DNA of 64,000 nt from a virus. This document shows positions 44,227 to 54,502 of this stretch, in pieces. Location: the IMG/VR virus record IMGVR_UViG_3300042868_009121, positions 1 through 64,000 of that record. One strand, 5' to 3'. Position 1 is the first letter of the stretch. The number at the start of each line of letters is the position of its first letter. Both the position numbers and the translations under genes were made by a program. The notes under the pieces were generated by a model that had not been told where the DNA came from, ran no database searches, and saw nothing but the letters and a program-made list of their open reading frames with translations.

Positions 44227-45417
44227 TTATTGTCCCTTACTAGGAAATTTAGTCCAACCATTGATCCAAGTAGGCATAGCTAATTCAGGAATAATAACAT
44301 CAATCTCTTTATTACCTTTTCCTAAAGCTAGTGTTTTAAGTTGATCATTAGTTAGGATTGTTGTTGCTTTACTAATAAAGTTTTGAGTTGGATTGAATGC
44401 ACCTACTGAATTATTTTCAAATATAGATACACCGTCTTTTATTGCTTGAGCTGTTTCATTACTTTCTAAACTTAATCCACCTTTTATCCAACCGTAGATA
44501 GCACTATTCTTTACTGTAAATTGTGTAGCTCTTCTAAACCTTAAACCTAGATTGTGGTTCGCTAATGCGGTTTGATTATTAGGTCCAACTAATACCATTC
44601 CAATTAATTTAGGATGCGTAAATGGTTGTGCCAGTGAGCCCACACCATCATTATCACATTCTACACCATTACCTGCGTCACCGTTGTCTACAAACAAAGG
44701 ATCACGTTTTGCAATACCATTTGTTACAGTTCCAGTGTAACCAAAATCAAAGTCAAAGTCATCATCTGCTGTAGCATACGCATAAAGATTTTTTGGAGAA
44801 ACAGTTCCGCCAAAGAATTCAAATGCATCATCGTTAGCATAGATTGTTTGTACATTTTCAATTATAGTACCAGAACCTACACCACCTAAAGTAAGTGCAT
44901 TAATTTCTGAGTTAGGTAATGCGGCAATTCCTGCATATTCAATACGAACATACTTCAAAATACCACTGTTGTCTCCATCATCATTACCACCAAATGGACG
45001 ACCAATACCACCTTCAATAGTTGGTTCTGATGAACGATTAGTTTTTGCTTTGCCTAATATTACAATTCCACCCCAGTCACCAGGAGACCTCTCGCCGGCG
45101 ATTTTTCCTGAGGTAAAAATGATTGGTTTTGTTGCTGTTCCTTCTGCAATAATCTTTGCACCTCTTTCGATACATAAAGCACCTTTTTCTGCAATATCAC
45201 TTTTAATTACAGTTCCTGCTTGAATAATTAATGTAGCACCTTCTTTAACATAAACGTATCCTCTTAGAGTCCATTCTTTGTCAGAAGTAAGAGTTGTAGT
45301 TATTGTAATGTTACCCGTAATTGTTTTGTCAGTAGGTACATTTATAGGTGGATCTATAGGTTCTTTTTTACAAGCAAATAAACCGATAATTACTAAAAAT
45401 AAAATTAGCTTTTTCAT
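44227..45417 (-). CDS. beta-helix surface lipoprotein partnered with the TonB receptor
   Basis: LFAC lipobox; PGDWGG, SGILKYVRIEYAG, GVGSGT, DDAFEFFGGTV, DDDFDFDFGY. Confidence 0.8.
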   Translation of the reverse strand: MKKLILFLVIIGLFACKKEPIDPPINVPTDKTITGNITITTTLTSDKEWTLRGYVYVKEGATLIIQAGTVIKSDIAEKGALCIERGAKIIAEGTATKPIIFTSGKIAGERSPGDWGGIVILGKAKTNRSSEPTIEGGIGRPFGGNDDGDNSGILKYVRIEYAGIAALPNSEINALTLGGVGSGTIIENVQTIYANDDAFEFFGGTVSPKNLYAYATADDDFDFDFGYTGTVTNGIAKRDPLFVDNGDAGNGVECDNDGVGSLAQPFTHPKLIGMVLVGPNNQTALANHNLGLRFRRATQFTVKNSAIYGWIKGGLSLESNETAQAIKDGVSIFENNSVGAFNPTQNFISKATTILTNDQLKTLALGKGNKEIDVIIPELAMPTWINGWTKFPSKGQ

Positions 45418-47663
45418 AAATTCAAATTAAATGTTAATGAAATTGATTGTTCGTTATTTGTTTTAATTAAATTGCCTCTTGATTTTTGATAATAAACAGA
45501 TGGTTGGGCAAGTATATCACCTACTGCTAATTTTATTTCTCCTTTACCTACTTTACGTAAGAATACTAAATCTATAACATCTCTAGAGTTTTCAAATATA
45601 TCATCGTATCCTTGAAAACCTACCGCAGATATTCTATCTCCAACTCTGTTATAAGAAATGTTAAACGTATTTTTTCCTTTATGTAAATTCAATCCACCAT
45701 TTACAACATAATTAGATTGTCCTTGTAATTGTCTTTTTCTTCCATTAACAATAACTTCAGATTTAACTATAGAAGTATTAGTATAAGCATCTAACCAATT
45801 AGTTATTTTTTTACGAAATTCTATTTCAAATCCAGCAACTAATGCTTGATCTGGGTTCAAGTAAGTTAATAATAGGTTTGATGGTACAGATCCATCTGCT
45901 ACTATTTGTTCAATTGGCTTTTTAAAGTCTTTAATAAAGAAAGCGGCAGATATATTTTCACCTTGTTTAGGATAGTATTCTAATTTAATATCAATATTGT
46001 ATATATCTGTTTTTTCTAAATTAGTATTACCCAATAATTGAGCATTACGTACAAAATCATAATAAGCAAAATTAGCCACTTCTCTAAATTCAGGTCTTGC
46101 TAATGTTTTACTAGCAGATATTCTATATTTGAATTTATCCCATTCATAAGAAAAGTTTACCGACGGTAAAAAGTCTAAGTACTTCCTATTTACATCAACT
46201 TTTTGTCCACTAAAATCTGCAGTATTAACATTAAACAAATTATATTCTGTTCTTAAACCTGCATTTACTTTCCAACCATTTAACTCGCCTTCATATAAAG
46301 CATACGCACTCGCTAAATCAAAATCTGCTGAATACTTGTCTGTGTTGTTAGTAATTTCATCTAACATGTCTATAGAAGTATATCTAAAGATTCTAGCTTT
46401 GAAAGTTCTATATTTTTTAATATAGCTTGAACCCATTTTAAAATTACCTAGTTGTTTATTCACACTAGCATTTAAACCATTTTCATCCATATCACTCCAG
46501 AAACGATAAGTATCTCTCCATGCTGTTGCATAAGGTTCATTAACACCTAATGATTTAGTTATTGGATTAATTCTATAGTCTGGTTGTTTTCTTATCATTA
46601 AGTTATATCCTACATTAAAATCAAAAGTTTTAATCTTGCCATCAAATTGTGAATTGATCAATGTTTTAATTATATTGTTAGATGCTGTACTTCTTACATC
46701 TTGAACATTATCATAATTTTCACCATTACGAGTTAAATACGTTTGTTCAACTTGATGATTAAATAATGTTTTCCAACTATACTTATTCTTTCCTGTATAA
46801 GTAATATTAGTTAGTGCATTTAATAATTGCACCTTACTAAATGAAGTATCTTTATATTTGTAAGCTAATTCAGTTGAAGATTGATAATCTTGTCTATCAA
46901 TGTAGTTTAATTGGAATGTATTTCTTGTTGTTGAACTAAATAAAAAGTTCCACTTATTTCTTTTTAAACCAAAAGACATTGATCCATTTAAGTTAGGAAT
47001 GGATTTAAATTGTTTGGCGTCTGGAGACTTTATAAGGCTTGTATAATTCCTTTTCTCTGTGTTTGTGCTTACGCGGTAAGTGTATGTGGATGGAAATTGA
47101 GTGGGGACGGTCGTATAATCCACCAATTTGAAATTTTGGGAAGTTGATACGGCCCCGTAGTTCATTCCGAGGCCTAATGAGAAAAAATCATTGGACACAT
47201 CTTTTGTAGTTATTTGAACAATACCTCCTGCAAAATCACCGGGTAAATTAGCTGTAGCTGACTTTGCTACTATGATATTATCTATAAGTCCTGAGGGAAT
47301 AATATCAAATGAGAATGCTCTACGATCAGGTTCTGTTGAAGGTAAAATGGTTTTATTCAACATAGCAGAGTTATATCTGTCTGCTAAACCTCTAACCAAT
47401 ACAAATTTATCGTTCTGTATAGTAACACCATTAACTCTTTTGAGTGCGTCACCTACACTACGGTCAGGAGTCTTTTTTATAAATTCAATAGAAAGACCAT
47501 CAGATATAACAGAACTATTTCTGATACTATTAACAACGGCAATATTGGATTCTTTCTTTTGTACAGAACGAATTGTAATATTGTCTAGTTTTTGATTAAA
47601 AATTGTGTCTTGAGAAAATGACAGAACCGGGAATAGTAAAAATAATAACGTTTTTAATTTCAT
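45414..47663 (-). CDS. TonB-dependent outer-membrane receptor
   Basis: Signal peptide; plug DALKRVNGV..VRGLADRY..PSTEPDRRAFSFDIIP..GDFAGG; barrel LARPEFRE, GNTNL, LQGQS. Confidence 0.9.
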   Translation of the reverse strand: MKLKTLLFLLFPVLSFSQDTIFNQKLDNITIRSVQKKESNIAVVNSIRNSSVISDGLSIEFIKKTPDRSVGDALKRVNGVTIQNDKFVLVRGLADRYNSAMLNKTILPSTEPDRRAFSFDIIPSGLIDNIIVAKSATANLPGDFAGGIVQITTKDVSNDFFSLGLGMNYGAVSTSQNFKLVDYTTVPTQFPSTYTYRVSTNTEKRNYTSLIKSPDAKQFKSIPNLNGSMSFGLKRNKWNFLFSSTTRNTFQLNYIDRQDYQSSTELAYKYKDTSFSKVQLLNALTNITYTGKNKYSWKTLFNHQVEQTYLTRNGENYDNVQDVRSTASNNIIKTLINSQFDGKIKTFDFNVGYNLMIRKQPDYRINPITKSLGVNEPYATAWRDTYRFWSDMDENGLNASVNKQLGNFKMGSSYIKKYRTFKARIFRYTSIDMLDEITNNTDKYSADFDLASAYALYEGELNGWKVNAGLRTEYNLFNVNTADFSGQKVDVNRKYLDFLPSVNFSYEWDKFKYRISASKTLARPEFREVANFAYYDFVRNAQLLGNTNLEKTDIYNIDIKLEYYPKQGENISAAFFIKDFKKPIEQIVADGSVPSNLLLTYLNPDQALVAGFEIEFRKKITNWLDAYTNTSIVKSEVIVNGRKRQLQGQSNYVVNGGLNLHKGKNTFNISYNRVGDRISAVGFQGYDDIFENSRDVIDLVFLRKVGKGEIKLAVGDILAQPSVYYQKSRGNLIKTNNEQSISLTFNLNL

Positions 47664-47725: not shown

Positions 47726-48025
47726 TTACTTACTGCTTTTCTCCTTAGTGCCAAAATAATAACTAAAGATCATTAGTACTAGCGTCTTTATTAGATCAAA
47801 TAACTCTTTATTTTGCTCAGGAGATATTAAATTAATTTTCCAAGCTATAGTTTTATCAACAATAAATAAAGCAACTAAAGCAGTAAATATCATTAATATA
47901 AATCTAACTAATATTTCTTGAGTATTTTGTGCAAATAGTTTATACGTAAAATAAACAGACATCATTATAAACCCTAAAGCCGCAAATATCCCTAGAATCA
48001 TTGTTAATCCACCTTCTGAAAACAT
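47726..48025 (-). CDS. three-TM holin-like membrane protein
   Basis: Three hydrophobic helices, YYFG and a basic tail. Confidence 0.5.
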   Translation of the reverse strand: MFSEGGLTMILGIFAALGFIMMSVYFTYKLFAQNTQEILVRFILMIFTALVALFIVDKTIAWKINLISPEQNKELFDLIKTLVLMIFSYYFGTKEKSSK

Positions 48026-48029
48026 AACT

Positions 48030-48431
48030 TTATTTTAATTGGTTTTGACTTGTATCTATTTTTTCAGTGATTACACTATCAGATTTTATAGTAGTATTTG
48101 TTTTTTCTTTACCCCAAAAATTCTTTTTAGTCTCAATATAAACAGTATCTATTTTATATACAATTTTTTCAGTAGCTATTGTTTGTTTACTTAATACTTC
48201 TTTATATTTTTCAACTTCAGTATTTAAATAGCTTATTTCTTTAACTATTTTAACTACTTGTTCTTTAGCAGTTGAATCTGATTGGTGGTAAACTAGAACT
48301 GCTGTATCAAAGTGTTTTTGGCTACTTTCAAGTATATTATCTACTTCTATCATTTGTTTAGTTATAACCTCTTGATCTTGGTTTTTACAACTAAATAAAA
48401 ATAAAAAAGATAATAGTAATAATTTTTTCAT
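48030..48431 (-). CDS. lipoprotein with coiled coil (o-spanin-like position)
   Basis: FLFSC lipobox; follows a TM coiled-coil gene. Confidence 0.55.
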   Translation of the reverse strand: MKKLLLLSFLFLFSCKNQDQEVITKQMIEVDNILESSQKHFDTAVLVYHQSDSTAKEQVVKIVKEISYLNTEVEKYKEVLSKQTIATEKIVYKIDTVYIETKKNFWGKEKTNTTIKSDSVITEKIDTSQNQLK

Positions 48432-48432
48432 A

Positions 48433-48735
48433 TTATTTAATTTTACCTAATTCTTGTAACAATGTAATTTTAGAAACAGCAGAAGCTAAAGCGCTATCAG
48501 ATCTACGAAGTTGATTTGATAATATATCAACTTTGGTTTCTAATACTACAATTTTAGCGTCTTGTTTAGTTACTATTTCTTTATTTGATAATTTAATATC
48601 AACATAAAGATATCCAATTGCAATTAATACAATAAATAATAATCCTTTAACAGGATCTTTGCTAAATTCTTTAAATGAGATTGGAGGTTTAATTGTTCCT
48701 GCCAATGATTCTACCGCTGTTTTTTTTGGTGCCAT
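48433..48735 (-). CDS. single-TM coiled-coil protein (i-spanin/holin-like)
   Basis: KGLLFIVLIAIGYLYVD TM then heptads. Confidence 0.5.
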   Translation of the reverse strand: MAPKKTAVESLAGTIKPPISFKEFSKDPVKGLLFIVLIAIGYLYVDIKLSNKEIVTKQDAKIVVLETKVDILSNQLRRSDSALASAVSKITLLQELGKIK

Positions 48736-48736
48736 G

Positions 48737-49852
48737 TTATTTTTGATTTTTACTACCTTCTTGAGTGGCGTATTTTATACCCATAATTGTTCCAACTATT
48801 GAAAACGCATTTGTCAATAATACACTAAACATGTTACTCCAAGTAGAGCCAATAATCTGTGTATCCTTACCAGTAAGCATTGCCATCCAATACAATGTAG
48901 TTGTTACAACACCTACGCCAATAATAACTGCTAATGCAACTTTTACAATCACCTTAATTAACTCGGATTGACTTTTTTTCATTACCACATCTAAATCATT
49001 TAACGCAGCATTTTTTTCTATTTCAATTGCGTCTTTCAGTTTTTTAGAGTTATCCAATTCAATTTGTAAATCTTTTGATAGGGCATCTATCTTGTTTTTA
49101 CTATTGACAGCTTCAGTAACATCAGTAGCAATTTTGATTACATTTGTAACATTTCCTTTGCTGTCAAAGACTGGATTATAGGTGGCTTGTAAATAGATAG
49201 TAGAGCCATCCACTTTTTTTCTTTCAAATATTCCGTCAAAAAACTTGCCGCTTTTTAAGGATTTCCAAAACTTACTATACTCATCTGATTTTGAATACTC
49301 ATAAGTTACAAAAATACTATGATGCTTTCCTATCACTTGGCTTTTTTCATTTGATCTATATCCCATGGTTTCTAAAAACACAGAATTAGCATCTACAATA
49401 AAACCATTAATATCAAAAGTAATAGTTGCAGTACTCTTATTAATTGCGTCTATCTGTTTTTTACTATTTACAATCATAGTAATGTCAGTAGCAACTTTCA
49501 TTACTTTAGTAATTGTACCACTCTCATCGTAAATAGGATTGTATGTTGCTTGTAAGTTGATAAGACTACCGTCTCTTTTCCTTCTTTCAAATTCTCCTTG
49601 ATAGTATTTACCACTTCTTAATATATCCCAGAACTTTTCATATTCCAATGATCTTGCATAATCTTCACATACAAAAATACTATGGTGCTTACCAATAAGT
49701 TCTGCATGCTCATCTGCACCATATCCCATTGCTTCTAAAAATATTGCATTAACACCTAAAATTTTTCCAGTTAGGTCAAAATAGATGATAGCATTGCTAC
49801 GATTAATCGCTTCAAGCCTACTTAGTAATTCTTCTTTAGATAGATTTTTCAT
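48737..49852 (-). CDS. tandem PAS/PAC sensor protein with coiled coil and two C-terminal TM helices
   Basis: Two repeats AINxS.AxIxFD..G..N..FL..MGY..IGKHHSIFV..EY.KFW..L.SGK..G.FER...DGS.I.LQATYNP..D..G....V.K.ATD.T (BdlA/MCP-type PAS); no MCP, kinase or GGDEF output domain. Confidence 0.88.
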   Translation of the reverse strand: MKNLSKEELLSRLEAINRSNAIIYFDLTGKILGVNAIFLEAMGYGADEHAELIGKHHSIFVCEDYARSLEYEKFWDILRSGKYYQGEFERRKRDGSLINLQATYNPIYDESGTITKVMKVATDITMIVNSKKQIDAINKSTATITFDINGFIVDANSVFLETMGYRSNEKSQVIGKHHSIFVTYEYSKSDEYSKFWKSLKSGKFFDGIFERKKVDGSTIYLQATYNPVFDSKGNVTNVIKIATDVTEAVNSKNKIDALSKDLQIELDNSKKLKDAIEIEKNAALNDLDVVMKKSQSELIKVIVKVALAVIIGVGVVTTTLYWMAMLTGKDTQIIGSTWSNMFSVLLTNAFSIVGTIMGIKYATQEGSKNQK

Positions 49853-50122
49853 TTATTGAGTTACTACAGTATCTACAACTTCAATAGCTAAAGTATCTAT
49901 AGGCTCTACAGGAACAATTACACTATTAATAGGAGTATCTGGAAAAGCATCGCTTACAACATTAATAATTGCTTCAAAATTCAATGATTCTTCAGCAATA
50001 TATCCTTTTTGAACAGCAAATATTCCAGCGGCAATTGCTACTACTGATAAGATGATTACAATTTTCTTTTTACCTTTAAATTTAGTTATTAAAGGAATTA
50101 GTTTTGATACTACGTTTTTCAT
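49853..50122 (-). CDS. single-TM protein
   Basis: Basic N-terminus, TM, acidic tail. Confidence 0.6.
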   Translation of the reverse strand: MKNVVSKLIPLITKFKGKKKIVIILSVVAIAAGIFAVQKGYIAEESLNFEAIINVVSDAFPDTPINSVIVPVEPIDTLAIEVVDTVVTQ

Positions 50123-50247
50123 TAATCTTTTTTTATATGGTTTTCTATATTTTTTATAACCTTTATATTTTGATCAATTAATTTACGATCTTTAAGGCCG
50201 TTCCTTCTAGACTTCATAGGTCTTGGTTTCGGTGATTTTTTTGCCAT
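50122..50247 (-). CDS. small basic protein (41 aa), absent from the ORF track
   Basis: MAKKSPKPRPMKSRRNGLK...; TAATG coupling at both ends. Confidence 0.5.
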   Translation of the reverse strand: MAKKSPKPRPMKSRRNGLKDRKLIDQNIKVIKNIENHIKKD

Positions 50248-50522
50248 TATAACTCCTCCTCTACCGGCTCTTCTTTAGCTCCAGCTTTTTTATTTACAAA
50301 CTTATCAATTGAAGCTATACCAAAGCATCCTAATACTAACCACATGAATGCATCGAATATAAAATCATTAATTACTAATGGCTTACCTAAATATCCGGTT
50401 ACAATATCTGCTAATGCAAATCCTACCATCATTACGAAAGCTAAAAAGCCTACTACAGACTTTTCATTAATATCATTGTTGTCTTTAAACAACTTGATAA
50501 AAAAAGATTGTTTTGATTTCAC
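50247..50522 (-). CDS. two-TM holin-like protein
   Basis: Two TM helices, charged C-terminus, adjacent to the endolysin. Confidence 0.55.
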   Translation of the reverse strand: MKSKQSFFIKLFKDNNDINEKSVVGFLAFVMMVGFALADIVTGYLGKPLVINDFIFDAFMWLVLGCFGIASIDKFVNKKAGAKEEPVEEEL

Positions 50523-50568
50523 TTGTTATACTTTTAATTAATAAATGTACAACCATTATGAAACTAAA

Positions 50569-51168
50569 CTACTTCAATAAGCTATAATACTCTTTGAAAT
50601 GCTTGATTCTGTCAGGAAGACCTATGGTACCACCATTTACTCTTTTGGTAACTGAAGTAACTACAGCATCTGTAGCACCTTGATCTGCAATTTTATGAAG
50701 ACCATTTTTATGGAAAAACCATGCAGCAGAAAGTAGAGGATACTTTGTTGCAACTAAATCTGGATTATCAATGATTGATTCGGCTACTACTGCATCGAAT
50801 GCTTTATAATTATCTTTTCCGGTTAATTGAATATAGCCTCTGCCACGAAATCTATAACCCTCTCCAGAAGCTTCAGGGCCATTACCCATTCTAGCTCCAT
50901 AAACTAGATTAGCAATTTTTTCTGGCTTGCGCTCATACAATTTAGCTTTTTCTTCTGTTGGGAAATACTTCTTGAATATACTCAATAGACCTTTTGCTCC
51001 GTAATTTAAATTTTCGTTAACTGCTTTAAATCCACCGGATTCGTGGCCTGCTTGAGCAAGAAAATGTGCTAAACGAAGTGGAGTGTTTAATTCAAATTTA
51101 GCAATTGTGTCTGGTAGCTGTGTAATAACAGCATCAGGGATATGCCCTTTAAGTTTGCTTATGTCCAT
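50569..51168 (-). CDS. glycoside hydrolase family 19 endolysin
   Basis: AHFLAQAGHESGGF, ENLNY, FRGRGYIQLTGKDNY, SAAWFF, TKRVNGG. Confidence 0.9.
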   Translation of the reverse strand: MDISKLKGHIPDAVITQLPDTIAKFELNTPLRLAHFLAQAGHESGGFKAVNENLNYGAKGLLSIFKKYFPTEEKAKLYERKPEKIANLVYGARMGNGPEASGEGYRFRGRGYIQLTGKDNYKAFDAVVAESIIDNPDLVATKYPLLSAAWFFHKNGLHKIADQGATDAVVTSVTKRVNGGTIGLPDRIKHFKEYYSLLK

Positions 51169-51376
51169 AGTATATAAATAATTTACTTAATTTATTTACA
51201 ACCTAGATTCAAAAACAATTAAAGTATTATTTTGATTATGTCTCTTATTAAATCTTCTCTTCCTAAAAATTCTAAAGCTATTAAAGATACTCCTAGTGCC
51301 AATCCAAATAATTGCGCTATAATTATAAACTTTAAAGAAAACTCTATTAGGCGGTTTTTCATAACATTTATAAATA

Positions 51377-51634
51377 TCATTTAAATTGGTTCAAAACTCT
51401 AGAAAGTTGATCTTTTGCCATAACTCCTGAGTTTCTGTATGCTACTTGACCTTGTCCATCTAGTATGATCAAAGTAGGTACTGATGTTACAGAATATCTT
51501 TCTGCAAAAGAAGCATCATAATCAACATTAATGTAGTTTATATTAACTCCCAATTCTCCAGATACCATTTCTACAACTGGTTTAAACATCTTACACGGTC
51601 CGCACCAAGGTGCTGTGAAATACAAAACTTGCAT
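51377..51634 (-). CDS. thioredoxin
   Basis: FTAPWCGPCK; SVPT. Confidence 0.92.
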   Translation of the reverse strand: MQVLYFTAPWCGPCKMFKPVVEMVSGELGVNINYINVDYDASFAERYSVTSVPTLIILDGQGQVAYRNSGVMAKDQLSRVLNQFK

Positions 51635-51635
51635 A

Positions 51636-52280
51636 TTAATTTATTTTAAATTTAAAGTTAGTTAATTTTTCTATTTCTTTTATATCTACTTCATTATTTT
51701 CAATTCCATCAGCTTTAGACTGATCATTATTAAATATATAAGCTTTCCATTCATTTTTGCTCTTTATATAAATAACTTTCCAACACTTATCAGGAACCGA
51801 TACTCTACCTATTTTTCTTTTTTCTCCTACTGAGCCTGTCCATACTTTAACTGAATCTAATGATTTAGCTAATTCTCTAGTACGCATTTCTAAAGTCTTC
51901 CAATCCCCTCTATTTAATTGTCCATATTGTGGAACCATATTAGAGAAATAAAAAGACTCTATCATAGCATCTTTACCAGAACACTGATTATCAGCTGCTG
52001 GAGCCATATGGCCACGATCAAAACCTGATTTGATATAATCACTAGCTAAATCGGTATAGGCGGCCAGAAGTGGGTCTGGTACAAATCTATCATGTCTTGG
52101 TATGGCTTTGTCACATTGAACCTTATTCTTTGTCACCCACCATTCAACTAGTACAGGATACTTTAAAGATTTTGAAAATACAGTAATATACTCTTTATGG
52201 AACAATCTCACTGTATCTTGTGCCTTTAATGACACACTAAGGAAAAGAACTATCGTTGTGGATAATAATGTTCTAAACAT
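51636..52280 (-). CDS. secreted DNA/RNA non-specific endonuclease (NucA/EndoG-like)
   Basis: Signal peptide; SGFDRGHMAPAAD, SNMVPQ..LNRGDWKTLE. Confidence 0.9.
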   Translation of the reverse strand: MFRTLLSTTIVLFLSVSLKAQDTVRLFHKEYITVFSKSLKYPVLVEWWVTKNKVQCDKAIPRHDRFVPDPLLAAYTDLASDYIKSGFDRGHMAPAADNQCSGKDAMIESFYFSNMVPQYGQLNRGDWKTLEMRTRELAKSLDSVKVWTGSVGEKRKIGRVSVPDKCWKVIYIKSKNEWKAYIFNNDQSKADGIENNEVDIKEIEKLTNFKFKIN

Positions 52281-52450
52281 TCTTTATTATAAATATCTTT
52301 TGTCCTCATATACCTTTTAGGTGTAAAAGTATACGAATGCTTAGGCCTATTCTTTTTTTCCCACTCTGCATATTGATCTTCTTTAAGCCAGTGATCTGTT
52401 TGTTTTTTCATTGTTTTAAGTAATAAGTCCCGTCTTTGTTCGTACGTCAT
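52250..52450 (-). CDS. hypothetical basic protein
   Basis: TATATTTG motif at 52455-52462. Confidence 0.45.
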   Translation of the reverse strand: MTYEQRRDLLLKTMKKQTDHWLKEDQYAEWEKKNRPKHSYTFTPKRYMRTKDIYNKECLEHYYPQR

Positions 52451-52531
52451 ATATCAAATATAAGCAAATTTTATTATCGTATGATAAAAATGTTTATAGT
52501 AATAGTGTATTAGGTTGATATTTATTTATAT

Positions 52532-52780
52532 ATGATGTTAGTAGAAGAAATACCGTGGTTGCACTTTGTAAAACTAAATCACATTAGAAAAATGTCTTTA
52601 AATGAGCAGGTTAGTGCTTATAGACAACATCTTTGTGATATTGAACAGATACGAATGTGTGGAGGAAAATCAAAAACTAAAGTAATTGGAAATATAGGTT
52701 ATCTTCAACAAGAAGATTTAAATTATATTTTACAAGAAGACGGATCAAAAATATTTGTAACAGGAATAAAAGAAGTATAA
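52532..52780 (+). CDS. hypothetical protein, possibly structural
   Basis: YLQQEDLNYILQEDGSKI repeat motif seen in phage tail-associated proteins. Confidence 0.55.
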   Translation: MMLVEEIPWLHFVKLNHIRKMSLNEQVSAYRQHLCDIEQIRMCGGKSKTKVIGNIGYLQQEDLNYILQEDGSKIFVTGIKEV

Positions 52781-52781
52781 A

Positions 52782-53429
52782 ATGCCAGATTTACCAATAT
52801 CAGGATTACCAGCAGCAAATTTACCTTTAGATGGAACAGAATTATTTGCGACAGTTCAAGGAGGAATAACTAAATACTCAACATTAAATTCAGTAAACTA
52901 TATTCCTGGTAATAGCTATGGATTATATGCTCAAATAGTAAATAGCACTCCTGTAACTGCTACAACATCAGAATTATCTTTAATAAATAGTACTGATGGT
53001 ATAGGTACATTAACTGTTCCTGCTAATGGTTTTAGAGTCGGAGATAGTTTTAGAGCGGATTTTGGTGGTCAGTTTTCTTCTAAGAATAATGATACTATAA
53101 GAATTAGAGTTAAAACAGGAAATGTAATCTTAGCAGATAGTGGAGTACAAACTATGTCAGCAGCAGTTGATGACATTTGGCAACTCTCTATTAATTTTAC
53201 AATTAGAGAACTTGGAGCAGCAGGAGTAGCAGATATTGTTTCACTTGGTGTATTTCATACTACAAAACAATCTAACGGTGCTCCGCAAGGATTTGCTTTT
53301 AATACTATTAATAATACAACATTTAGTACTACAGTAACAAATGTTTTAGATGTTACAGCTCAGTTTAGTTCAAATAGTCCTTTAAATTCAATATTTACAG
53401 ACATATTCGTATTGAATAAAATCTATTAA
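52782..53429 (+). CDS. probable virion structural (fibre/decoration) protein
   Basis: MPDLPISGLPAA..VQGGITK N-terminus; T/S/G-rich beta composition. Confidence 0.55.
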   Translation: MPDLPISGLPAANLPLDGTELFATVQGGITKYSTLNSVNYIPGNSYGLYAQIVNSTPVTATTSELSLINSTDGIGTLTVPANGFRVGDSFRADFGGQFSSKNNDTIRIRVKTGNVILADSGVQTMSAAVDDIWQLSINFTIRELGAAGVADIVSLGVFHTTKQSNGAPQGFAFNTINNTTFSTTVTNVLDVTAQFSSNSPLNSIFTDIFVLNKIY

Positions 53430-54502
53430 TTACTTAAGGGAGCTTTTATTTTTGAATGCGATTGATAATTTATTAACTCAAAACAATCTGGTCTGTAACT
53501 TAGTATTTTTTCGCTAAATGTTTTTTCTCCAAGATGTTCTTTAACTGCTTCATGCATATACCAATTCCTTTCAGTTATTTGAACTTTAGGTAATTCATAT
53601 GGAGTTCTAGTAATTTGTTCTTTAGCTTGTTCAATATGGTTATTATACAAATGAACGTCACCTAAATTACCAATTAAATCTTCAGGCACCATGTTTACTT
53701 CTTTAGCAATAATCTCAAGTAGTAGTGCATATGAAGCAATATTGAATGGTAGACCAAGGAATGTATCTACTGAACGTTGATTCCACATTAGAGAGATTGC
53801 TCTTCTTGGAATGTTTCGTTGTTCTAAACGATTTATAGCTACATTATGTAAACCATCTGGCGGCCAGTCGTATTTGGCAATGCTATACCTTTCTTTTAAA
53901 CTCAACTTTCTCGTATAAACTTGAAAACCATAATGACAAGGCGGAAGTACCATTTGATTTAATTCACCTACATTCCAAGCACTAACCATTAATCTTCTAC
54001 TATCTGGATTTATTTTGAGTTCTGAGATTAGGTTTGCGATTTGGTCTACGTGTTCAGTACCTTTATAGAATACGCTTCTACTATTCCAGTTTCTCCATTG
54101 CTTACCATAGATTGGTCCTAACTCCCCCCACTGTTTAGCAAACTCATCATCTGTTTTTATTTTTTCTACAAATGCTTCTTCCTTTGTAACAAACGGACCC
54201 CAATCAATTTCGCCGTTATATTTTTCATAGTTCTTAATTGCATCACCATTCCAAATATGACAACCATTATCAACAAGGTATTTGATATTAGTATCACCTC
54301 TTAGGAACCATAGTAACTCTGTTACCATAGTTTTCCACGCCATCTTTTTTGTAGTTAGCAATGGAAAGCCTTCTTTCATATTGTGCCTAATTTGCCAACC
54401 AAAGATTGATTTAGTGCCTGTACCTGTACGGTCTTTCTTATCTATACCAAAATGTAAGATATGTTCTAATATTTCTTTATACTGACGGTCTATATTATTC
54501 AT
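53426..54502 (-). CDS. thyA: thymidylate synthase
   Basis: DRTGTGT, FPLLTTKK, LGPIYGKQWR, SRR, LPPCH, QRSVDTFLGLPFNIASY, HLYNNH. Confidence 0.96.
   Translation of the reverse strand: MNNIDRQYKEILEHILHFGIDKKDRTGTGTKSIFGWQIRHNMKEGFPLLTTKKMAWKTMVTELLWFLRGDTNIKYLVDNGCHIWNGDAIKNYEKYNGEIDWGPFVTKEEAFVEKIKTDDEFAKQWGELGPIYGKQWRNWNSRSVFYKGTEHVDQIANLISELKINPDSRRLMVSAWNVGELNQMVLPPCHYGFQVYTRKLSLKERYSIAKYDWPPDGLHNVAINRLEQRNIPRRAISLMWNQRSVDTFLGLPFNIASYALLLEIIAKEVNMVPEDLIGNLGDVHLYNNHIEQAKEQITRTPYELPKVQITERNWYMHEAVKEHLGEKTFSEKILSYRPDCFELINYQSHSKIKAPLSN

Follow-up and report, generated by a model that had tools for sequence, protein, structure and literature searches.

The lysis cassette

We analyzed a stretch of viral DNA of 64,000 nucleotides (positions 1 to 64,000 of the IMG/VR virus record IMGVR_UViG_3300042868_009121; hereafter, the window), focusing on a gene located among lysis genes that encodes a 371-amino-acid (aa) protein with two PAS domains, a long helix and a C-terminal membrane hairpin (hereafter, the PAS-hairpin protein). 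The window has a G+C content of 30%, and DNA nearly identical to it was found in lake-water metagenomes from several studies; its source is an uncultured lake phage. The gene is one of eight that follow each other on the minus strand at positions 47726-51168, all of which appear in the list of open reading frames exactly where a preliminary description of this DNA, made from the sequence alone, had placed them. From the upstream end, the genes are the following (TM, transmembrane):

50569..51168, minus strand: GH19 endolysin, 199 aa (phrog_181, 2.5e-66; Pfam Glyco_hydro_19, 1.4e-7)
50247..50522, minus strand: tm2, holin-like protein of 91 aa with a GTG start, two TM segments (aa 23-41 and 54-72, from hydropathy) and an acidic/basic C-terminal tail
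50122..50247, minus strand: basic peptide of 41 aa, its start overlapping the tm2 stop; kept in the related loci L001 (93%) and L244 (69%)
49853..50122, minus strand: single-TM protein of 89 aa (TM at aa 20-38), abutting the start of the PAS-hairpin gene
48737..49852, minus strand: PAS-PAS-helix-hairpin protein, 371 aa (Pfam, hydropathy, AlphaFold2, dN/dS)
48433..48735, minus strand: type-II membrane protein of 100 aa with a helical periplasmic part (TM at aa 29-47), i-spanin-like
48030..48431, minus strand: lipoprotein of 133 aa with the lipobox LFSC, o-spanin-like (read from the sequence)
47726..48025, minus strand: tm3, holin-like protein of 99 aa with two to three predicted TM segments and a basic C-terminal end

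Both family matches of the first gene bear out its earlier assignment as a GH19 endolysin, and copies 78-99% identical to it are present on >80 viral contigs. The tm2 family has >5000 metagenome relatives without a functional name and matched no Pfam family; a tm2 gene directly adjoins the PAS-hairpin gene in 23 of the 43 loci analyzed below and is also found beside endolysins in the kinase-relay lineage to which we return. The 41-aa basic peptide has no family match in Pfam or PHROGs, and homologues of the 89-aa single-TM protein occur in few loci only. No holin was recognized by Pfam in the window cassette. Two TM segments are clear in tm3, which had been described as a 3-TM protein, and the third is weaker; in three other loci (L015, L016 and L290), the endolysin gene comes right after the tm3 homologue.

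The 100-aa type-II protein and the lipoprotein lack a family match in Pfam and PHROGs, and their features, one N-terminal TM segment and a lipobox cysteine, fit a spanin pair. They co-occur in L012, L015, L016, L059 and L290, and in the first four of these, the PAS gene is placed between them. The pair is missing from the closest relative of the window, L001 (93.5% identity), where a 690-nt difference (window positions 48047-48736) corresponds exactly to these two genes.

The run is as tightly packed as previously described, except that the gap between the endolysin and tm2, which had been included among gaps of 0-4 nt, is 46 nt; after tm2, the gaps range from -1 to 4 nt. Given these short gaps and the lack of any terminator-like site within the eight-gene run, it is plausible that the run is one transcription unit. 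A scan for sigma-70 promoters yielded fewer sites than shuffled sequences and is uninformative for this type of host.

Architecture of the PAS-hairpin protein

Pfam searches with the 371-aa protein detected PAS domains, each profile matching two stretches (PAS_3, 5.3e-27; PAS_9, 1.1e-21; PAS, 2.7e-18), and no other domain. MCPsignal and HAMP gave no match at E values up to 0.1, and neither HisKA nor HATPase_c was found; by its domain content, the protein is thus neither a methyl-accepting chemotaxis protein (MCP), the name given to the gene by the automatic JGI annotation, nor a histidine kinase or two-component protein. By hydropathy, the C-terminal part contains two TM segments, TM1 at aa 298-316 and TM2 at aa 341-359. 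Hence the architecture that had been read from the sequence, two PAS domains and two C-terminal TM helices with no kinase, MCP or cyclase output, stands. The AlphaFold2 model (mean predicted local distance difference test, pLDDT, 80.6) consists of two PAS folds (both with pLDDT 85-91), an unbroken helix at 246-327 (82 residues), a 4-residue turn and a second helix at 332-364. The parts of the protein map to the window as follows:

49484..49795, minus strand: PAS domain 1, aa ~20-123 (PAS_3 at aa 33-120; AlphaFold2 PAS fold, pLDDT 86-91)
49121..49432, minus strand: PAS domain 2, aa ~141-244 (PAS_9 at aa 148-247; AlphaFold2 PAS fold)
48962..49117, minus strand: charged linker helix, aa 246-297, continuous with TM1 (AlphaFold2 helix 246-327; dN/dS 0.12)
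48764..48961, minus strand: membrane hairpin, aa 298-363, comprising TM1, the 4-residue turn and an amphipathic TM2 with GxxxG (hydropathy, AlphaFold2, alignment)

The coiled coil that had been proposed between the PAS domains and the membrane is borne out as a long, charged predicted helix, but the heptads of this linker are only moderately regular (in the best register, hydrophobic residues occupy 8 of 15 a/d positions), so that a coiled coil is possible, judging from the sequence. Lysines precede TM1 and are present in the short, net-positive C-terminal tail, which fits a predicted N-in/C-in topology of the hairpin with nearly no exposure to the periplasm. TM2 is moderately hydrophobic, carries Ser, Thr, Asn and Gly on one continuous face and ends in GxxxG.

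The closest sequence matches in the PDB are MmoS (3ewk, 5e-9, best for PAS1), the Aer PAS domain (8dik, 4e-6, for PAS2) and NifL (2gj3, 1e-5). Foldseek with the full model also recovered 3ewk (2.6e-16), together with DosP, NifL, FixL and LOV kinases; all matches were to PAS proteins, and the hairpin had none. The description of the domains as MCP/BdlA-type was therefore correct as far as the PAS fold goes and loose as a label, the nearest solved relatives being MmoS, Aer and NifL. The His of a GxxH motif and the Trp of an FW motif align with FAD-binding PAS sensors of the MmoS/Aer/NifL type. Residues 1 to ~300 have matches in bacterial PAS-PAS proteins, with 38-47% identity.

The two PAS domains are tandemly repeated, and their DNA is 68-69% identical in a comparison with the L001 copy (window positions 49083-49762). 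Natural variants of 250 aa with a single recombinant PAS domain (P0186, P0126 and P0145) are encoded on contigs of 170-240 kb and are also found in the same lakes. Lake contigs show single-PAS variants in the form of joints from one repeat to the other, in a survey of sequencing runs that rests on contigs from mixed strains. One joint in this survey (49852 to 48432, from one run; the length of its sides is not shown) would delete exactly the PAS gene and the next gene; joints with sides of 21 letters, such as 48450 to 51238, were not considered.

Conservation and selection

Thousands of relatives of the PAS-hairpin protein were found in a large protein collection, and the best 120 of these are 83-94% identical across the full 371 aa. 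Hundreds of phage contigs carry the full-length protein at 79-95% identity; in IMG/VR, 159 viral loci were confirmed for the gene, and 80 of them were kept for analysis. The contigs of relatives reach 160 kb among viral and 308 kb among metagenome sequences.

Synonymous sites have reached saturation in a set made up of the window copy and 31 distinct copies from phages (the proportion of synonymous differences, pS, is about 0.6, and dS is above 1). Thus, the high protein identity is old and maintained and does not reflect recent transfer. The dN/dS ratio is 0.07 for PAS1, 0.11 for PAS2, 0.12 for the linker, 0.11 for TM1 and 0.028 for the loop plus TM2, and residues 331-363 are invariant in 33 of 33 aligned sequences. 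By both measures, the loop plus TM2 is the most conserved part of the protein. The neighboring genes are much more diverged (35-70% identity).

The hairpin family

An exhaustive HMMER search with residues 262-371 retrieved 96 representative clusters containing the C-terminal module, mostly proteins of 130-230 aa with the module at the C-terminus. In alignments, the commonest form consists of an N-terminal domain of ~45 aa, which we denote LEGNILK, a basic stretch, a helical linker of variable length and the hairpin. Other N-termini joined to the hairpin are two PAS domains, one PAS domain (P0186), a different PAS domain and a GAF domain (2.5e-17). The search for C-terminal modules fused to other sensor domains, suggested in the preliminary description, was thus positive. 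A 146-aa protein (P0212), in which an N-terminal TM region similar to that of the phage kinase described below is joined directly to the hairpin, may have arisen by recombination of the kinase and hairpin genes or be an assembly artefact. Fusions with a glycosyltransferase fragment (P0221) and a TsaD fragment (P0193) were left out of account, since they may be chimeras of assembly or gene calling.

The hairpin matched no Pfam family. Neither the window protein nor 27 hairpin relatives matched a holin family in Pfam or PHROGs, and the sole recurring PHROGs match was a weak one to phrog_1544, of unknown function, in 9 of the 27 relatives (best E value 0.0015). In a collection of isolate phages, neither the C-terminus of the window protein nor the LEGNILK form found a match to the hairpin, so that no cultured model phage is at hand; the whole protein gave three unrelated PAS matches only. 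A profile search of 400 other sampled Bacteroidota genomes produced no real hairpin match (a single hit of 22 bits, E 1e-4), and a scan of species genomes recovered the full-length protein on three short contigs of metagenome-assembled genomes only, with patterns derived from the PAS region, so that hairpin-only genes in cellular genomes are covered in part, by the profile search. In the ESM Atlas, the closest clusters are hypothetical and 100% viral. Taken together, these searches suggest that the hairpin represents an unnamed family of its own, found almost only on viral contigs in the collections covered.

Linkage to lysis genes and accessory status

Among 43 PAS-hairpin loci with flanking sequence, which are not phylogenetically independent, a recognized endolysin is encoded within 3 kb in 37 and directly adjacent in 19. 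The nearest endolysin belongs to GH19 in 18 loci, to GH24 (Phage_lysozyme, 3e-43) in 11, to PG_binding_1 with phrog_3000 in six and to Peptidase_M15_3 (2e-21) in two. Linkage across four unrelated endolysin families makes shared descent of one cassette hard to invoke as its cause, and the placement of the gene in lysis cassettes, for which synteny with endolysins had been suggested as a check, is thereby corroborated. Holins of the Phage_holin_4_1 family and the second holin-like family, tm2, share cassettes with the PAS-hairpin gene.

The gene is nevertheless optional. We compared 44 viral loci in which the endolysin is 78-99% identical to that of the window and at least 3 kb is available on both sides; the PAS-hairpin gene is present in nine and absent from 35. 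Furthermore, loci L290 and L298 are collinear, with 82% nucleotide identity over >9 kb, and the extra ~1.1 kb in L298 is exactly the PAS-hairpin gene, inserted between the spanin-like pair. From this presence in 9 of 44 loci, the L290/L298 difference and the 690-nt difference from L001, we conclude that the cassette is a site of gene-by-gene exchange and that the PAS-hairpin protein is probably not an indispensable holin.

A sister system with a separate kinase and receiver

We surveyed the LEGNILK form in 45 IMG/VR loci with adequate flanks. In all 45, the LEGNILK-hairpin gene is preceded by genes for a PAS histidine kinase, which is membrane-anchored (HATPase_c, 2.9e-13; PAS_3, 8.7e-12), and a stand-alone receiver of 145 aa (Response_reg, 1.3e-8). 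The PAS domain of the kinase is 36-41% identical to each PAS domain of the window protein, and the LEGNILK hairpins are 45-65% identical to the window family in the C-terminal 100 aa. The neighbors in these cassettes are tm2-like genes, Phage_holin_4_1 holins and endolysins, and in many loci, the relay lies between the holin and endolysin genes. In tblastn searches of the window and L001-L080, the kinase and receiver queries matched the PAS region only.

Loci L081-L160 are marine and freshwater phage contigs with a complete kinase and a receiver inside lysis-type cassettes (for example, L124:6329-7567 and L090:7564-8001), and there, these two genes are often followed by a gene for a 4-TM protein of 325-415 aa without a family (cluster d6).

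Since kinase, receiver and hairpin are separate genes in one system, and PAS domains and hairpin are fused in the other, the comparison argues, in the manner of a Rosetta stone, for the hairpin being the downstream element of a signaling path. The idea that the membrane module itself is the output was advanced in the preliminary description; it gains from the position of the hairpin as the conserved part of the protein, from its occurrence under GAF or a single PAS domain and from its place after kinase and receiver in 45 of 45 loci, and we infer such an output role from these sequence comparisons.

A proposed signal-controlled regulator of lysis timing

The explanation toward which we lean, and which we regard as a little more likely than not, is that the PAS-hairpin protein is an accessory, signal-controlled regulator whose hairpin acts in the inner membrane on the timing of lysis, either like an antiholin or through a leak that triggers holins. 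The two cytoplasmic PAS domains would bind or sense an intracellular cue, and the conformational change would pass along one long helix straight into TM1. This would alter the packing or the oligomeric state of the hairpin, with the near-invariant polar face of TM2 as the putative effector surface. The hairpin would then act within the membrane on the lysis machinery, restraining or releasing the holin; alternatively, a small regulated leak might collapse the membrane potential and so trigger the holins. In either case, the burst time of the host would follow the state of the infected cell. A flavin or heme would be the candidate cofactor and redox state or oxygen the candidate cue, as put forward in the preliminary description, and the regulation might run in either direction. 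No homology to known antiholins was detected in Pfam or PHROGs.

Several observations weigh against this explanation. A recognized endolysin is absent within 3 kb in six of the 43 PAS-hairpin loci, and 20 of the 45 kinase-relay loci have no recognized endolysin nearby; in addition, the non-independence of the 43 loci reduces what their count can carry. The hairpin is far more conserved than the adjoining holins and endolysins, the neighbors being 35-70% identical, and a host target that is itself conserved, or a channel that self-assembles, fits this conservation at least as well as does binding to fast-evolving holins. On the side of the signal, the Asn in the NRRKDG stretch of MmoS and the RHPD stretch of Aer are replaced in the alignments with the window protein; these positions, which we take to be flavin contacts, thus allow no cofactor to be assigned.

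The conservation of the hairpin bears directly on the strongest alternative, a regulated membrane effector with a role other than lysis, such as excluding superinfection, controlling the respiration or membrane potential of the host during infection, or inhibiting a conserved host membrane enzyme; its gene would merely be lodged among late membrane genes. That TM2 is extremely conserved among phages whose lysis genes are unrelated points to a conserved target, possibly in the host, some loci have no nearby endolysin, and the genes for an outer-membrane receptor-like protein and a lipoprotein that follow the cassette show that the region also holds envelope genes unrelated to lysis. We nonetheless consider this alternative unlikely, although worth keeping in view, given that the gene adjoins endolysins of four families, that the insertion in L298 falls exactly between the spanin-like genes and that, in many loci, the relay form is flanked by holin and endolysin genes.

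A second alternative, in line with the sensor-holin of the preliminary description, is that the hairpin itself forms the hole, as a class II or pinholin-like holin, with the PAS domains gating the trigger. Several features would fit a holin: a predicted N-in/C-in two-TM topology, a short, net-positive tail, an amphipathic TM2 with GxxxG and a position beside endolysins (directly adjacent in 19 of 43 loci), in a window cassette that has no holin recognized by Pfam. The protein is, however, 371 aa long with large cytoplasmic domains, near-invariant in sequence, unlike known holins, and without a match to a holin family in Pfam or PHROGs. Moreover, it is optional in near-identical cassettes (9 of 44 loci; clean indel) and co-occurs with Phage_holin_4_1 holins and with the holin-like tm2 and tm3 proteins. 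A role as the main holin is thus unlikely, and we regard the sensor-holin in general as improbable.

It is more doubtful still that the hairpin is a mere membrane anchor, with the PAS domains signaling to a soluble or membrane partner. Many PAS proteins are membrane-tethered, but one would not expect the strongest conservation of the whole protein to fall on an anchor (dN/dS 0.028; 33 invariant residues), or an anchor to stay constant beneath differing N-terminal domains.

Finally, a truncated host chemoreceptor or sensor gene that was picked up by a phage and is decaying, the objection raised beforehand in the preliminary description, might seem to be supported by the bacterial PAS-PAS matches to residues 1 to ~300 and the MCP annotation at the source, but it is excluded for practical purposes by dS above 1 with dN/dS of 0.03-0.12, full-length copies under strong purifying selection in hundreds of phage contigs, the absence of an MCPsignal domain in Pfam searches and the lack of a real match for the C-terminal module in the searched bacterial genomes.

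Returning to the regulator of lysis timing, a wider and distinctly tentative generalization, which we would not expect to hold in full, is that large aquatic phages run their own signaling, through a fused PAS-hairpin protein or a kinase relay, onto a gated pinhole or holin trigger, with burst timing set by the energy or redox state of the infected cell. Phages would then possess an equivalent of lysis inhibition that senses on the cytoplasmic side, together with a novel protein family, a kind of PAS output not seen before and regulated intramembrane effectors of a new class.

Genes surrounding the cassette

Directly after the cassette, on the minus strand at 44227-47663, the window encodes a 749-aa outer-membrane protein resembling TonB-dependent receptors (Plug, 4.6e-7; OMP_b-brl_3, 2.4e-23) and a 396-aa lipoprotein, and this pair is kept in L001, L004, L259 and L292. 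Upstream of the cassette, at 51377-54502, are genes for a thioredoxin-like protein (WCGPC), a secreted protein resembling DNA/RNA non-specific endonucleases and a thymidylate-synthase-like protein, identified from their translations only.

Farther along the minus strand, at 19095-39480, ~20 consecutive genes (25-30% G+C) make up a cluster for sugar biosynthesis and glycosylation. Its members include GT2 and GT1 glycosyltransferases, an NAD epimerase/dehydratase, a three-domain thiamine pyrophosphate enzyme, an HMGL-like aldolase with DmpG_comm, a C-methyltransferase and a DegT aminotransferase. Phage genomes seldom carry a pathway for an unusual sugar, in this case possibly a branched one.

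Comparison with known systems

Lysis timing sets the burst size and the fitness of a phage. To our knowledge, signal-dependent control of lysis is known only as lysis inhibition upon superinfection, in T-even phages and in the Vibrio phage ICP1, and a full-text literature search found no description of phage lysis proteins linked to PAS domains or kinases. If the proposed regulator exists, then, given its retention under strong selection in thousands of phage contigs from lakes and the sea, phages would commonly couple the killing of the host to its physiology, which would matter for modeling virus-induced mortality and carbon release in natural waters. PAS and two-component signaling would, moreover, gain a new type of output. 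The small invariant hairpin could, in addition, serve as a ligand-switchable part for permeabilizing membranes.

In T4, lysis inhibition involves the holin T and the antiholins RI, which is periplasmic, and RIII, which is cytoplasmic (PMC11413866, PMC8385771). The likeness lies in an accessory, non-essential protein that is encoded with lysis genes and, in our case, would adjust holin triggering upon a signal; RI can act while anchored in the membrane, senses superinfection from the periplasm and binds the periplasmic domain of the holin with its globular domain. The window protein has no sequence or fold relation to the T4 proteins; its sensor is a pair of cytoplasmic PAS domains and its putative effector a hairpin within the membrane. 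In ICP1, lysis inhibition depends on the holin TeaA and the antiholin ArrA (PMC7182436), which provide signal-dependent lysis timing outside the T-even phages through small membrane proteins near lysis genes. TeaA and ArrA are not homologous to the PAS-hairpin protein, and they are not known to involve a ligand-binding sensor domain or phospho-relay.

The window protein has the PAS-PAS fold in common with MmoS, NifL, Aer, DosP and FixL. The outputs of those sensors are a kinase, a phosphodiesterase, an MCP or binding to NifA, whereas that of the window protein would be a membrane hairpin.

Class II holins and pinholins, such as S21 68 of phage 21, have two TM segments, an N-in/C-in topology and a glycine-zipper-like face on TM2, and are encoded beside the endolysin. 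The window hairpin shares with them the two TM segments, the predicted N-in/C-in topology, the small-residue face of TM2 and the endolysin neighbor. Holins are, however, small, fast-evolving and essential, whereas the window protein, at 371 aa, has a nearly invariant TM2, is optional and carries sensor domains.

The closest counterpart is the set of kinase-receiver-LEGNILK operons, which have the same hairpin family, related PAS domains and the same cassette neighbors as the window. In those operons, the signal would travel by phosphotransfer through a separate receiver, whereas in the window protein, the PAS domains are fused directly to the hairpin, with no kinase or receiver.

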